A DNA stretch of 64,000 bases from Escherichia coli (GTDB lineage Bacteria > Pseudomonadota > Gammaproteobacteria > Enterobacterales > Enterobacteriaceae). The position numbers and the translations under genes were made by a program. The stretch's first letter is position 1, and each line of letters opens with the position of its first letter. The notes under the pieces are model-generated. The model was given only the letters and a program-made list of their open reading frames with translations. It did not search any database and had not been told where the DNA came from. Below are positions 2,927 through 33,386 of this stretch, piece by piece. Location: the NCBI RefSeq assembly GCF_011045215.1, contig NZ_CP049201.1; one strand, given 5' to 3'.

Positions 2927-3105
2927 ACGTAATTGCCGGATGCGACGCACGAGTGTTACGCCTGCCGCATCCGGCGATTTTCGTCGCTTACCCTAAATCC
3001 GCCATCAACATCTTCGATTTTACGTAGGTCGGATAAGGCGTCCACGCCGCATCCGACGATTTTCGTCGCTTACCCTAAATCCGCCATTAACACTTTGGAT
3101 TTACG
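2927..3105. repeat. REP-type palindromes with a tandemly duplicated ~88-bp unit (REP arm + argA 3' terminus)
   Basis: Palindrome gccggatgcgacgc...gcctgccgcatccggc; segment cgattttcgtcgcttaccctaaatccgccat occurs twice (approx 2969-3010 and 3057-3092), second copy overlapping the argA stop region. Confidence 0.6.
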
Positions 3106-4401
3106 CTGGTAGTTGTACAACTGCTTTTTGCTTTCGGGCAGTAAATCAATATCCACTGGGGTAAATCCACGTTCCTGGAACCAGTGAATACTGCGCGTGG
3201 TCAGCACAAACAATTTGCTTAAGCCGCTCTGCTTCGCCTGAGCGGCAATGCGTTCCAGCAGAACTTCACCCCTTGATGAACTGCGGTAATCCGGGTGAAC
3301 TGCCACACAGGCCATTTCCCCAATCTTCTCTTCCGGGAACGGATAGAGCGCGGCGCAGGCAATAGTCGTGTTATCGCGCTGAATAATGGTGAATTTGTCG
3401 ATTTCCATCTCCAGCTGCTCGCGAGAACGGCGTACCAGAATACCTTGCTGCTCCAGCGGGCGAATCAACTCCAGAATACCGCCAATATCGTTGATTGTTG
3501 CGCGACGAATCTGCTCGGCGCTTTCCATCACAATCTGCGTACCGATACCGTCGCGTGAGAACAACTCTTGCAACAGCGCGCCATCTTCCTGATAACTGAT
3601 TAAATGACAGCGACGCACGCCGCTGCGGCAGGCTTTCACTGCGCCACGCAAAAAGCGCACCGTACCGGAGTTGTAATCACCTTTCTCTTCCTGGGCTTCT
3701 ACCCGCGCTTGCGCTTCGTTAGGGAAAAGTTCGGAGACAATATCACCGTCGTCATTAGTGACGCCCTGGGAAGAGCAAAAACCAATCATCTTTTCAGCTT
3801 TCAGTTTGATGGCCAGTTGAGTGGCAATCTCTTCCGAGGTCAGATTAAAGCTCTCGCCAGTGACTGAAACAGCGACCGGCCCCATTAGCACTATTGCACC
3901 GCTGTCCAGTTGACGATGGATCGCGTCTTCATCAATCCGCCGGATACGCCCGCTATGGCAGTAATCCACGCCGTCATCGACGCCCAGCGGCTGGGCAATA
4001 ATAAAATTGCCACTGACGACGTTGATATGCGCGCCCTGCAGCGGCGTGTTATTGAGACTCATCGACAGGCGAGCCGTAATATCCAGTTGCAATGTTCCCG
4101 CAGCCTGCTTCACCAGTTCCAGTGTTTTGGCGTCGGTCACACGTATATTCTTGTGATACAGCGGTTCGTGGTGATGCGCAGCCAGATTTGCGTCGATCTG
4201 CGGACGTGCGCCATAGACCACCACCAGACGGATGCCGAGGCTGTGCAACAACCCGATATCATTAACGATACTGGAGAAATTCTCATGCTCAATGGCTTCA
4301 CCGCCGAGCATGATGACAAACGTTTTTCCCCGGTGGGTATTGATATAGGGAACCGAATGGCGGAATCCCTCGACCAGCTCGGTTTTACGTTCCTTTACCA
4401 C
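3070..4401 (-). CDS. argA: N-acetylglutamate synthase ArgA (443 aa, GTG start)
   Basis: 465-aa ORF in track; recognised ArgA sequence begins at [14 protein letters not shown] codon at 4399-4401; ends ...KVLMADLG. Confidence 0.9.
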
Positions 4402-4632
4402 GGCACACCTCTTTGCATGATTATTCGAAATTATTGTATTTTTATTCTGTTTTTTCGCAGGGTGCAAGTGTAAATTTTATGCGAGAGCGACTTTTTTATC
4501 AGTAATACCGTGAATATAAAAAGAATGTTTACCGTTTATTAGATGACAGATTATGCGTCTTTCGCTAAAGTTTCCGGTCAAATTAGTCGTTTACTTGTTA
4601 CACAGCTTAGATTTCTTTTGCTCGGGAGAGGC

Positions 4633-5886
4633 ATGTCAGGATCCAACACTGCAATCAGCCGTCGTCGTTTACTGCAAGGCGCGGGTGCCATGTGGCTATT
4701 GAGCGTAAGTCAGGTCAGTCTGGCTGCGGTCAGCCAGGTCGTGGCGGTGCGCGTCTGGCCTGCGTCCAGCTACACCCGCGTGACGGTGGAATCAAATCGT
4801 CAGCTGAAATATAAGCAGTTCGCGTTGAGTAACCCTGAACGCGTGGTGGTGGATATCGAAGATGTAAACCTGAACTCGGTACTCAAGGGGATGGCGGCAC
4901 AAATTCGTGCAGACGACCCGTTCATCAAGTCGGCGCGCGTCGGGCAATTTGACCCGCAAACCGTACGGATGGTTTTTGAATTAAAGCAAAACGTAAAACC
5001 GCAGCTGTTTGCCCTTGCGCCGGTCGCCGGGTTTAAAGAGCGTCTGGTGATGGACCTCTATCCGGCCAATGCACAGGATATGCAGGATCCGCTGCTGGCG
5101 TTGCTGGAGGATTACAACAAAGGCGACCTCGAAAAGCAGGTGCCGCCAGCGCAAAGTGGTCCACAACCGGGTAAAGCAGGGCGCGATCGTCCGATTGTCA
5201 TTATGCTTGACCCTGGCCACGGTGGCGAAGACTCCGGTGCGGTGGGGAAATACAAAACGCGCGAAAAAGATGTGGTATTGCAAATAGCTCGCCGTTTGCG
5301 CTCTCTGATCGAGAAAGAGGGCAATATGAAGGTGTACATGACGCGCAATGAAGACATCTTCATTCCGTTGCAAGTGCGCGTAGCAAAAGCCCAGAAACAG
5401 CGTGCTGACCTGTTTGTCTCTATCCATGCCGACGCCTTTACCAGTCGTCAGCCGAGCGGTTCCTCTGTGTTTGCGCTCTCAACCAAAGGTGCAACCAGTA
5501 CTGCGGCAAAATATCTGGCACAAACCCAGAACGCCTCGGACTTGATTGGTGGCGTGAGCAAAAGCGGTGACCGCTATGTCGACCACACCATGTTCGATAT
5601 GGTGCAGTCGCTGACCATTGCCGACAGCCTGAAGTTTGGTAAAGCGGTACTGAATAAGCTCGGTAAAATCAACAAGCTGCATAAAAATCAAGTTGAACAG
5701 GCCGGGTTTGCCGTACTAAAGGCACCAGATATTCCCTCCATTCTGGTCGAAACGGCGTTTATCAGTAACGTTGAGGAAGAGCGTAAACTGAAAACGGCGA
5801 CCTTCCAGCAGGAAGTTGCAGAGTCTATTCTTGCAGGGATTAAAGCGTATTTTGCCGATGGAGCGACGCTGGCGAGAAGGGGATGA
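4633..5886 (+). CDS. amiC: N-acetylmuramoyl-L-alanine amidase AmiC (417 aa) with Tat-type signal
   Basis: ORF 4543-5886; likely start at [19 protein letters not shown] (twin-arginine motif); amidase_3-type sequence; synteny. Confidence 0.9.
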
Positions 5887-5914
5887 TAAAAAGGCGCTGA
5901 ATGGCGCTTTTTTA
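5887..5914. terminator. Bidirectional intrinsic terminator between amiC and the tRNA gene
   Basis: aaaaaGGCGCtgaatgGCGCtttttt: GC stem flanked by A-run and T-run. Confidence 0.55.
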
Positions 5915-29611: not shown

Positions 29612-29976
29612 CGACAGGGAGTCAGACAACGAAGTGAACATCAGGATGATGACACTTCTGAAGGACACACCAGGATGGTGTTTCAGGGAAAGGCTTCTGG
29701 ATGAAGCGAAGAGGATGACGCAGGACGCGTTAAAGGACACCTCCAGGATGGAGAATGAGAACCGGTCAGGATGATTCGGTGGGTCAGGAAGGCCAGGGAC
29801 ACTTCAGGATGAAGTATCACATCGGGGTGGTGTGAGCAGGAAGCAATAGTTCAGGATGAACGATTGGCCGCAAGGCCAGAGGAAAAGTTGTCAAGGATGA
29901 GCAGGGAGCAACAAATGTAGCTGGAATGCTGCGAAACGAACCGGGAGCACTGTGAATACAGTGCTCCCTTTTTTTA
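29612..29976 (+). ncRNA. csrB: CsrB, CsrA-sequestering small RNA
   Basis: Starts GTCGACAGGGAGTCAGACAACGAAGTGAACATCAGGATG; many repeated CAGGATG/AGGA motifs; ends with hairpin GGGAGCACTGTGAATACAGTGCTCCC + T8. Confidence 0.93.
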
Positions 29977-30020
29977 TTCCTGCTATCCTTCGCGGCAGTT
30001 TTTCTTATTGAGGTTGCTTT

Positions 30021-30350: not shown

Positions 30351-31132
30351 TGCTGGAAATACTCTATCAGGATGAATGGCTGGTTGCGGTAAATAAACCC
30401 TCCGGCTGGCTGGTTCACCGCAGCTGGCTGGATCGCGACGAGAAAGTAGTGGTCATGCAAACCGTGCGTGACCAGATAGGCCAGCATGTTTTTACTGCTC
30501 ATCGTCTGGACCGACCCACTTCTGGTGCGTTGTTGATGGGATTATCCAGCGAGGCCGGACGGCTGCTGGCACAACAGTTTGAACAGCACCAAATCCAGAA
30601 ACGTTACCATGCAATTGTGCGCGGCTGGTTGATGGAAGAAGCGGTGCTGGATTATCCACTGGTGGAAGAACTGGACAAAATCGCTGATAAATTTGCCCGC
30701 GAAGATAAAGGCCCGCAGCCAGCAGTGACGCATTATCGCGGTCTGGCGACCGTAGAAATGCCTGTAGCGACCGGACGTTACCCGACCACGCGCTACGGCC
30801 TGGTGGAACTGGAGCCGAAAACCGGACGCAAGCACCAGCTCCGTCGCCATCTTGCCCATTTGCGTCATCCGATTATTGGCGATAGCAAACATGGCGATTT
30901 ACGCCAGAATCGCAGCGGTGCTGAGTATTTTGGCCTTCAGCGCTTAATGCTGCATGCCAGTCAGTTGTCATTGACGCATCCTTTTACTGGCGAGCCGCTG
31001 ACTATTCACGCGGGCCTGGACGACACCTGGATGCAGGCGTTATCACAATTTGGCTGGCGCAATCTGCTTCCTGAAAATGAAAGGGTTGAGTTCAGTGCGC
31101 CATCGGGTCAGGATGGAGAGATAAGTTCCTAA
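30350..31132 (+). CDS. truC: tRNA pseudouridine-65 synthase TruC (260 aa)
   Basis: 260-aa ORF; RluA-family motif HRLDRPTSG. Confidence 0.92.
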
Positions 31133-31149
31133 TCCAGGGAGAAAACGGT

Positions 31150-31599
31150 ATGGCGGAAATTGGTATTTTTGTCGGCACCATGTACGGAAATTCGCTGTTA
31201 GTGGCGGAAGAAGCAGAAGCAATTCTGACCGCGCAGGGCCACAAAGCAACGGTATTTGAAGATCCTGAATTAAGCGACTGGCTGCCCTATCAGGATAAGT
31301 ATGTTCTGGTGGTTACGTCCACGACCGGGCAGGGCGACCTTCCTGATAGCATTGTGCCGCTCTTTCAGGGAATCAAAGATAGTCTGGGCTTCCAGCCGAA
31401 TCTGCGTTATGGCGTGATTGCGCTCGGCGACAGCAGTTATGTAAATTTCTGCAATGGCGGCAAACAGTTCGATGCCTTGTTGCAGGAACAGAGCGCTCAG
31501 CGGGTTGGCGAAATGCTGTTGATTGACGCCAGTGAGAACCCGGAACCGGAAACGGAATCAAATCCGTGGGTCGAACAGTGGGGCACGCTGTTGTCCTGA
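31150..31599 (+). CDS. yqcA: Flavodoxin-like protein YqcA (149 aa)
   Basis: 149-aa ORF; flavodoxin-like N-terminus ([12 protein letters not shown]...). Confidence 0.9.
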
Positions 31600-31651
31600 T
31601 ATGTTCAGCGAGCGGTAAATGCCGTTTTAGCGGTGCTGAATCGAATCTTTT

Positions 31652-31708
31652 CAGGCAAATGCCAGTAAAAACTGCTTCATAGCGCGGATTTTTACTGGCG
31701 TTTGCCTG
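31652..31708. repeat. 20-bp inverted repeat (long stem-loop) downstream of yqcA
   Basis: caggcaaatgccagtaaaaa ... tttttactggcgtttgcctg, 17-nt loop, one G-U position; no adjacent U-tract. Confidence 0.5.
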
Positions 31709-32033
31709 GAGTCAAGCGATCCATTTCATACTCTTCTTTATTTCTTCGTTTTAACCCTTCCTTTCTTGTTCTTGTTTTCATTTCCGTGAAGTGGATTCCA
31801 CCGTCCAGGGCTAATGCCAAAATCGGGCCTCATTGAACGCATTAATGTTGTGTTGTTGCACGGTGAGCCGCTATGGCGCGCTTTTTATACTGCTATTACC
31901 AGATATTAACACGCGCCGTATTCGGCGAACGACCTATAAAAACGGCAAAAAACACCCTACGTCACCTCTGATTTCCTGGCGATGTCGCAGTCCAGAGTGA
32001 GCGTGGCTAACGCGAATTTTCAGGAGTGCAACA

Positions 32034-33386
32034 ATGAGTTCTTTAAGTCAGGCTGCGAGCAGTGTGGAAAAACGCACGAATGCTCGTTACTGGATAGTGG
32101 TGATGTTGTTTATCGTCACATCCTTCAACTACGGCGACCGCGCTACGCTTTCTATTGCCGGTTCGGAAATGGCCAAAGATATCGGCCTTGATCCCGTGGG
32201 AATGGGCTATGTGTTCTCTGCCTTCTCATGGGCTTATGTTATCGGGCAGATCCCTGGTGGTTGGTTGCTGGATCGTTTTGGTTCAAAACGCGTCTACTTC
32301 TGGTCGATCTTTATCTGGTCGATGTTTACCTTGCTGCAAGGCTTCGTCGATATCTTTAGTGGATTCGGCATTATCGTTGCCCTGTTTACGCTGCGCTTCC
32401 TGGTCGGGCTTGCTGAAGCGCCATCTTTCCCCGGCAACAGTCGCATTGTTGCGGCCTGGTTTCCGGCGCAGGAAAGGGGAACGGCGGTGTCGATTTTTAA
32501 CTCCGCTCAATACTTCGCAACGGTGATCTTCGCGCCGATTATGGGCTGGCTGACGCATGAAGTGGGTTGGTCACACGTCTTCTTCTTTATGGGCGGTCTG
32601 GGCATTGCCATCAGCTTTATCTGGTTGAAAGTCATCCACGAGCCAAATCAACATCCGGGGGTAAATCAGAAAGAGCTGGAGTACATCGCTGCGGGTGGCG
32701 CGCTGATCAATATGGATCAGCAAAACACCAAAGTTAAAGTGCCGTTCAGCGTGAAGTGGGGGCAGATCAAACAACTGCTCGGGTCACGGATGATGATCGG
32801 CGTTTATATCGGTCAGTACTGTATCAACGCCCTGACTTACTTTTTCATTACCTGGTTTCCGGTTTATCTGGTGCAGGCGCGTGGGATGTCGATTCTGAAA
32901 GCGGGCTTTGTGGCTTCCGTTCCGGCGGTTTGCGGTTTTATCGGCGGTGTGCTGGGTGGGATTATTTCCGACTGGCTGATGCGCCGCACGGGATCGCTGA
33001 ACATTGCGCGTAAAACACCGATCGTAATGGGCATGTTGCTGTCGATGGTGATGGTGTTCTGCAACTACGTCAACGTTGAGTGGATGATCATCGGCTTTAT
33101 GGCGCTGGCCTTCTTCGGTAAGGGCATTGGGGCGCTGGGTTGGGCAGTAATGGCAGATACCGCGCCAAAAGAGATCAGCGGTCTTTCCGGTGGCCTGTTC
33201 AACATGTTCGGTAACATTTCTGGCATCGTCACGCCAATCGCAATTGGTTATATCGTTGGCACGACTGGCTCCTTTAATGGGGCGCTGATTTATGTTGGTG
33301 TTCATGCCTTAATCGCGGTACTGAGCTACCTGGTGCTGGTGGGCGATATCAAGCGTATCGAGCTGAAACCTGTCGCGGGGCAATAA
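32034..33386 (+). CDS. gudP: D-glucarate/galactarate MFS permease GudP (450 aa)
   Basis: 450-aa MFS ORF; synteny with gudXD. Confidence 0.93.

Follow-up and report, generated by a model that had tools for sequence, protein, structure and literature searches.

In the E. coli window analyzed here, that is, the whole 64,000-nucleotide stretch of DNA, an inverted repeat at positions 31652-31708, between yqcA and gudP, is best explained as the 3′-end-forming, protecting stem-loop of the yqcC-truC-yqcA transcript that would shield the CdaR-controlled gudP promoter from upstream transcription; we assign this interpretation a probability of about one half. The feature is real, conserved and previously unannotated, and it is ordinary in kind: it is a stem-loop that follows a gene where one operon gives way to the next, and only its length and the T-run buried within the stem set it apart. 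Several lines of evidence support this reading, namely, the position of the repeat on the sense strand, 52 nt past the yqcA stop codon and about 190 bp before the putative gudP start; the stability of the hairpin (-36.8 kcal/mol), which is much above that in any other genus; the strand asymmetry; the homologous hairpins; modest covariation; the different variation of the arms and the loop; and the compositional skew downstream. Counting against it are the observations that the homologous module in many genera is a second element next to yqcA's own canonical terminator, that the full structure is limited to Escherichia, with the module absent in Enterobacter and the Citrobacter freundii group, and that the conservation of a box in the 5′ arm exceeds what pairing requires.

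The locus is of the Escherichia coli K-12 type, with the gene order csrB, yqcC, truC, yqcA, gudP and gudX, all on the + strand. The csrB small RNA (29619-29978, +), identified by a full-length Rfam match of 384 bits, lies just 5′ of yqcC, whereas the coding sequences of yqcA (31150-31599, +; flavodoxin) and gudP (32034-33386, +) were taken from the list of open reading frames (ORFs) and the RefSeq annotation of the identical K-12 locus. The yqcA gene is the last in the co-directional yqcC-truC-yqcA run, and its transcript would carry the hairpin; gudP is the downstream gene which the hairpin region would insulate. The repeat begins on the same strand 52 nt after the end of the yqcA stop codon (31599), so that it is located, like an intrinsic terminator, 3′ of the gene on the sense strand; on the - strand, the ORF list includes no gene that would need a terminator at this site. 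Directly after the yqcA stop codon, RNA folding predicts a smaller + strand hairpin (31603-31641), with an inner CGG-UAAAUG-CCG stem-loop followed by UUUU, which is Escherichia-specific; its place is taken in other genera by a strong terminator of the form CCCTCCC..GGGAGGG.

Several other candidates at this site were considered and dropped. Two small ORFs over the element, one of 38 aa (31566-31682, +) and the other of 42 aa (31692-31820, -), were rejected because the flanking sequence is not conserved beyond Escherichia. A small RNA gene between yqcA and the hairpin was likewise set aside, the scan having given no + strand promoter-like site there and a segment that is kept in other genera being absent from E. 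coli. A candidate antisense promoter, TTGACT-16-AAAAAT, on the - strand overlaps the 3′ arm, its -35 element coinciding with an invariant GTCAAG block; it was discarded because, in the aligned sequences read by eye, the -10 element is not conserved in Kosakonia and Phytobacter. Among the papers searched, none prints the arm or box sequences and none names yqcA and gudP together; the names yqcA, gudP and truC were likewise missing from those supplements that were searched, which belonged to papers on Term-seq, SMRT-Cappable-seq, nanopore sequencing, RNase III and operon mapping.

The geometry of the repeat agrees with the original prediction of a 20-bp stem with one G-U pair and a 17-nt loop, located about 50 bp past yqcA. 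The 5′ arm, caggcaaatgccagtaaaaa (31652-31671), and the 3′ arm, tttttactggcgtttgcctg (31689-31708), form 19 Watson-Crick pairs and one wobble pair (T31660·G31700). Read along the + strand, the 5′ arm (CAGGCAAATGCCAGTAAAAA) ends with an A5 run (31667-31671) and the 3′ arm (TTTTTACTGGCGTTTGCCTG) starts with a T5 run (31689-31693), as seen in the sequence and in the repeat search. Within the 17-nt spacer (31672-31688, +), CUGC (31672-31675) pairs with GCGG (31684-31687) in a weak 4-bp apical stem that encloses an 8-nt loop, with A31688 bulged; thus, the apical stem is followed by an A and U5. This apical stem has a stability of -3.9 kcal/mol in E. coli but is absent (0.0) in two other Escherichia species. 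At the base, the RNA fold adds three + strand pairs (U·G, U-A, U·G) between 31649-31651 and 31709-31711 (GAG), such that the minimum-free-energy structure contains 23 consecutive pairs, the 20 bp of the repeat and 3 basal ones, and so is as long as an RNase III substrate, for which some 20 bp or more of unbroken RNA duplex are needed. The repeat search further places the element at the center of an imperfect palindrome with 35-nt arms that are 77% complementary.

The description of the repeat as unusually long holds as well. When one non-Watson-Crick position is permitted (here, the U·G), it is the longest short-range inverted repeat of the 64-kb window. Its 20 bp compare with 11-13 bp when the surrounding 24 kb were shuffled five times, and the analytic expectation for such repeats is about 1e-4 per 64 kb. 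RNA folding, which had been suggested as a check, confirmed a strong structure, the 161-nt context on the + strand reaching -57.6 kcal/mol (z = -5.9; none of 200 shuffles equaled it). The context on the - strand is weaker (-43.9 kcal/mol, z = -3.1) and carries an A·C mismatch. The hairpin alone (31652-31708) has a predicted stability of -36.8 kcal/mol.

A consensus terminator scan of positions 31100-32100 detected 0 terminator-like sites, in line with the earlier view that the element is not a canonical intrinsic terminator. The full stem is followed by GAGTCAAGCG (+ strand) and AAAAGATTCG (- strand), neither of them a U-rich run, so that the stem lacks the U-rich stretch (at least about 5 U in 8 nt) that directly follows the stem of a canonical terminator. 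The accompanying claim that there is no U-tract on either strand is accurate only past the full stem because the T5 run (31689-31693) sits inside the 3′ arm, and homologues contain terminator-like cores. The full stem is preceded by TCTTTT, without an A-tract, the A5 run being located inside the 5′ arm.

The element is present in 5425 of the 5426 complete E. coli genomes searched with an 81-nt query (word size 11), at a median of 1 place per genome. No RefSeq annotation lies beneath it, and no second copy with up to 3 mismatches was found in the 64-kb window. The search of Rfam at E values up to 10 yielded no family match, only matches at the chance level; the sole match overlapping the element, with 25.5 bits where the gathering score is 90 (E = 5.9), involves a Plasmodium snoRNA and is attributable to chance.

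Arm-centered 30-nt queries match the window exactly in about 99% of E. coli genomes (5363/5425 and 5376/5425), whereas with the loop-centered query about 9% of the genomes differ, the 17-nt spacer being the most polymorphic part of the element; these genome counts are not equivalent to independent events. In the four sampled variant strains, the changes are confined to the loop or flanks. Arm changes occur in the divergent strain ZF8-1 and in other Escherichia species, several of them being C-to-T substitutions that give G·U on the + strand. This population pattern in E. coli is consistent with constraint on the arms, short of proof. In a separate strain, E. coli 2014C-4135 (locus L088, ~3078-5900), an IS66-family element (tnpA, tnpB and an ISEc23-type transposase) is located directly 3′ of the hairpin, the insertion at window position ~31716 parting the hairpin from the gudP control region.

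A comparison of the K-12 locus with five other Escherichia genomes showed that all six sequences keep the stem and that in each of them the + strand RNA has the greater stability of the two strands. Three of the arm substitutions among Escherichia species yield a + strand G·U; one species (L002) has accumulated later mismatches that reduce the stability to -24 from -37 kcal/mol. The U·G pair at 31660/31700, which on the - strand is an A·C mismatch, is U·G in 14 of the 21 aligned sequences. Given the stable + strand fold, the conserved U·G and the lack of a - strand gene needing a terminator, a + strand RNA is favored, namely, the yqcA transcript.

Among the 80 yqcA loci compared, one per species, the adjacency of yqcA and gudP is widespread, and a module homologous to the E. 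coli element is present in Escherichia, several Citrobacter, Salmonella, Silvania, Kosakonia, Phytobacter, Superficieibacter, Raoultella and others. The module reads CTGAATCG ... GGCAnnTGCC-n-GTAAAA ... variable core ... TTTTTAC-n-GGC ... GTCAAGCGA-N-TTTCACAC, and its distance to the gudP start codon is constant (about -400 to -323); hence, the hairpin is the left edge of a long conserved region upstream of gudP. Citrobacter, Salmonella, Superficieibacter, Raoultella and others share the consensus GCCnGTAAAA-(short stem)-TTTTTACnGGC, and in Citrobacter, Superficieibacter and Raoultella a short stem flanked by A and T runs makes up the variable core, for example, AAAACCCTTTC-ATAC-GAAAGGGTTTT. 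The copies of Raoultella and Superficieibacter read as terminator-like (e.g. AACCACTGG..AGTGGTTTTTT), and that of Citrobacter sp. MGH106 passes the terminator scan on both strands, but the homologous sites in loci L062, L079 and L023 fail it, and the apical stems of the homologues are generally weak. In Kosakonia, Phytobacter and Silvania, the 3′ side is A-rich, not T-rich, and there is no long stem.

The module is missing in Enterobacter and the Citrobacter freundii group, where the equivalent space contains GC-rich hairpins (GCCGGGTAAGGCG..CCCGGC); in loci L025-L043 of these groups, which lack the module, hairpins of the form GCCGGGTAAGGCG..GCCGCCACCCGGC are located in the first ~60 nt after yqcA, and we presume these hairpins to be REP-like. 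In one Citrobacter locus (L014), 2 kb are inserted between yqcA and gudP, and the module is absent on both sides. In many genera, yqcA has a canonical terminator of its own right after the stop codon (e.g. Salmonella arizonae, L023, 3458-3477), so that the module there is a second element. In non-Escherichia genomes (Salmonella L023/L024, Citrobacter), direct repeats flank the module, one A(A/G)CGACCTGT..CACA copy lying ~60-90 nt 5′ of it and a second one just 3′ of it (AGCGACCTGTTTCACAC); AACGACCT is also found in the gudP leader (window 31928-31935).

The homologous elements of other genera have predicted stabilities of -7 to -27 kcal/mol, compared with -36.8 in E. coli. The outgroup sequence TTTTCATAG corresponds to TTTGCCTGG in Escherichia, a change that comprises 3 substitutions within 5 nt, each of which creates a Watson-Crick pair with the 5′ arm; the basal part of the 3′ arm, TTTGCCTG, is Escherichia-specific, the other genera having TTTTCA(C/T). 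These substitutions, together with the far weaker homologues, indicate that the long stem is an Escherichia-specific extension of an older, shorter hairpin.

Conservation of the pairing, the lack of which had been named in the original prediction as grounds for rejecting it, turned out to be partial. RNAalifold, applied to 29 and to 21 sequences, produced no consensus long stem across genera, which limits conservation of the full structure to Escherichia; pairing was therefore counted on the named E. coli structure, and covariation is treated as modest. In the 21-sequence alignment, 82.8% of the cells are paired in the middle 12 bp, which pair in five genera and include one clearly covarying pair, compared with 63% in the basal 8 bp, where full pairing is seen in Escherichia only; the counts for all 29 sequences give a similar picture. 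The covarying pair (AU 7, CG 7, UA 3, UG 1, with 2 unpaired) has a covariation score of 0.151 as against 0.125 in shuffles (reached by 5/500) and at most 0.097 with slid partners, but this reflects very few independent events, and arm-to-arm template switching could yield the same pattern without selection. The box GGCAAATGCC (GGCAnnTGCC; 31654-31663) in the 5′ arm, delineated by alignment and motif comparison and reading GGCATTTGC on the - strand, is nearly invariant across genera, with or without a pairing partner, so that the box is conserved in sequence while a neighboring stem position covaries.

Directly 3′ of the stem, the GTCAAGCGA block marks the start of the conserved gudP upstream region; in the alignments, the core positions of the GTCAAGCGA-N4-TTTCATAC block (31711-31731, +) are invariant or nearly so. 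The hairpin is followed directly by a C-rich, G-poor and T-rich tract (31720-31799, +; 20 C and 8 G, GC skew -0.43), a candidate Rho-utilization region, the skew of which falls in the lowest 0.5% of the 80-nt windows of the 64 kb. A skew of C over G (-0.2 to -0.5) is found at the same place in all 38 loci with the GTCAAGCGA block, even though the sequences differ.

The putative gudP core promoter (31849-31891, +), recognized by conservation, consists of TGTGTTGTTGCACGGTGAG, TTGCAC (31856-31861), N24 and TATACT (31886-31891), which would place the gudP start site near 31898, about 190 bp 3′ of the hairpin. The TTGCAC-N24-TATACT layout is common to the gudP and garP upstream regions, and in Citrobacter (L008) the promoter scan recovered TATACT as well. 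One 14-mer, GCATTTGCACAATG, occurs in identical form 5′ of cdaR (L083, 2887-2901) and of garP (L082, 6392-6405, - strand). It looks like a CdaR activator box centered near -41 of the putative start sites, a candidate derived from three promoters and not a published consensus. Many genera share conserved blocks far 5′ of the putative gudP promoter, at 31711-31731, 31775-31792 and 31808-31819 (GTCAAGCGA-N-TTTCAYAC, TTTTCATTTCCGTGAAGT and GGGCTnnTGCCA, respectively), among which TTTCA(C/T)/GTGAA recurs; the first of these blocks (31711-31731) resembles a weak CRP site.

Put together, these features suggest how the stem-loop could act at the end of the yqcA transcript. RNA polymerase leaving yqcA would transcribe the + strand hairpin, and a minority of the polymerases may halt at the embedded U5, a minor intrinsic component. 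The remaining polymerases would enter the untranslated C-rich, G-poor tract (31720-31799), where Rho would load and bring about termination ahead of the CdaR-controlled gudP promoter near 31890. The RNA would then be trimmed by 3′-to-5′ exonucleases back to the base of the hairpin, near 31708-31711, yielding a precise, protected 3′ end of the yqcA mRNA. As a consequence, transcription of the constitutive upstream operon would not run on into the inducible gudPXD operon and the control sites that precede it. Historically, the element would descend from a shorter hairpin with a terminator-like core, the stem of which Escherichia lengthened to 20 (23) bp.

The same hairpin could instead be a weak, symmetric intrinsic terminator in which the apical stem and the A5/U5 tracts stop RNA polymerase at ~31694-31697, with the outer 15 bp forming only in read-through or released RNA and adding nothing to termination. 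The T5 run embedded after the apical CUGC/GCGG stem and the A-tract/stem/T-tract layout of the homologues in other genera speak for this possibility, as do the Citrobacter copy that passes the scan on both strands and the terminator-like copies of Raoultella and Superficieibacter. We nevertheless regard it as doubtful, given that the apical stem is only 4 bp long, with an 8-nt loop and -3.9 kcal/mol, and drops to 0.0 in two other Escherichia species; that no scan match exists in the E. coli intergenic region and the L062, L079 and L023 sites fail too; and that the extension of the stem in Escherichia is left unexplained. The helix of 20 bp plus 3 basal pairs runs for about two uninterrupted turns, which is the size range in which E. 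coli RNase III substrates fall. The hairpin might accordingly be an RNase III site, at which predicted cleavage of the 23-bp helix in read-through RNA would part the yqcA RNA from the downstream RNA, an event compatible with transcript-end formation. We give this proposal little credence, there being no sequence feature that specifically points to RNase III.

The suggestion of a protein-binding palindrome fits the conservation of the 5′-arm box without a partner, but compensatory changes at one stem position are unlike a simple operator. In its most specific form, the arms would be inverted GGC(A/G)TTTGCC boxes 43 bp apart, a distal putative site at which CdaR or a different regulator of gudP would bind, and the ability to form a hairpin would be incidental. 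The near-invariance of GGCAnnTGCC across genera even when it has no pairing partner speaks for this model, and the - strand box GGCATTTGC can be compared with GCATTTGCACAATG, identical 5′ of cdaR and garP and accompanied at gudP by the related TTGCAC-N24-TATACT; the two share 9 of about 14-15 positions, the box itself being a derived one and the 9-mer common. By our reading of the alignment, the Salmonella version, GCATATGCACAAAGC, matches the candidate CdaR box more closely, and the garP-garD intergenic region holds two such boxes 42 bp apart. The similarity, however, extends only over a 9-mer with 5 occurrences in 64 kb (8 for the 8-mer class GCAWWTGC), the site is 190-245 bp 5′ of the putative start site, the second box, in the 3′ arm, exists in Escherichia only, and neither the covarying pair nor the U·G asymmetry is predicted, all of which makes an operator rather improbable. 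More speculative still would be a composite Escherichia insulator, in which the U-tract buried in the 23-bp helix makes an RNase III-cleavable read-through duplex and the arms serve also as paired CdaR-like boxes 43 bp apart; we consider it a long shot, but, if true, a single sequence would link upstream transcription to the control of gudP by glucarate. The correction of quasi-palindromes by template-switch mutation is a mechanism of E. coli mutagenesis, and the perfection of the stem could be a neutral result of intrastrand template switching, with no function beyond that of the ancestral shorter hairpin. The clustering of three substitutions within 5 nt (TTTTCATAG to TTTGCCTGG), each adding a Watson-Crick pair, is suggestive of such an event, and in L002 mismatches have since been gained; yet the retention of the stem in 6/6 Escherichia sequences and the ~99% identity of the arms in 5425 E. 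coli genomes, compared with ~9% differing at the loop, render a purely neutral origin unlikely. The uncatalogued repeat family envisaged at the outset, and more generally any origin as a dispersed repeat or a small mobile element (REP/BIME, ERIC/IRU, BoxC or MITE type), is refuted for E. coli: the imperfect palindrome does reach 35-nt arms and an IS66-family element adjoins the hairpin in one strain, but the genome search gives one place per genome (median) in 5425 genomes with no further copy in the window, Rfam offers no match, and the position relative to gudP is constant across genera.

The protective transcript-end stem-loop, if correctly identified, provides a defined, conserved 3′ boundary for the yqcC-truC-yqcA unit and delimits the gudPXD control region on its upstream side. 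Its value is mainly for annotation, and it bears on no open question, but it offers a clean natural case of a terminator-type hairpin lengthened in one genus by clustered substitutions, which could be of use in the study of the evolution of 3′-end stem-loops and, as a strong protective hairpin without a U-tail, in construct design.

Among known systems, canonical and bidirectional intrinsic terminators likewise consist of an A-tract, a stem-loop and a T-tract after a gene, and the homologues are alike in this respect; the E. coli element differs in that only a weak 4-bp stem adjoins T5, the T-run is buried in a longer helix and nothing U-rich follows. By contrast, the same window contains a textbook terminator (56244-56293), in which a perfect 16-bp stem (AGAAAGGTAACTTCCC / GGGAAGTTACCTTTCT; 56244-56283) encloses an 8-nt loop and leads into T10. 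As in quasi-palindromes shaped by template switching, clustered multi-base changes have perfected an imperfect inverted repeat, but here such an origin is deduced from species comparison only, and the retention in E. coli suggests some constraint. REP/BIME and ERIC elements are also intergenic imperfect palindromes 3′ of a gene, from which this element differs in being single-copy and in lacking sequence similarity to those families.

The closest parallel is the class of E. coli transcripts described by Dar and Sorek (2018; PMC6061677), in which Rho-dependent transcripts end precisely just after stable stem-loops that are devoid of a U-rich tail and are followed by a mild enrichment of C over G, with rut sites just downstream. 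These stem-loops protect the RNA against PNPase and RNase II and are reported to have no association with the A-rich tracts found 5′ of intrinsic terminators (PMC6061677). The E. coli hairpin resembles this class in forming a stable stem-loop past the gene end without a U-rich tail and in being followed directly 3′ by a C-over-G tract (31720-31799), and it is this fit of stable stem, missing U-tail and C-over-G tract that makes protective transcript-end formation the best explanation. It differs from the class in the length of the stem, 20-23 bp, far beyond ordinary terminator-sized stems, and in carrying internal A5/U5 tracts; given that the class is reportedly not associated with A-rich tracts, the element appears to be a hybrid form.
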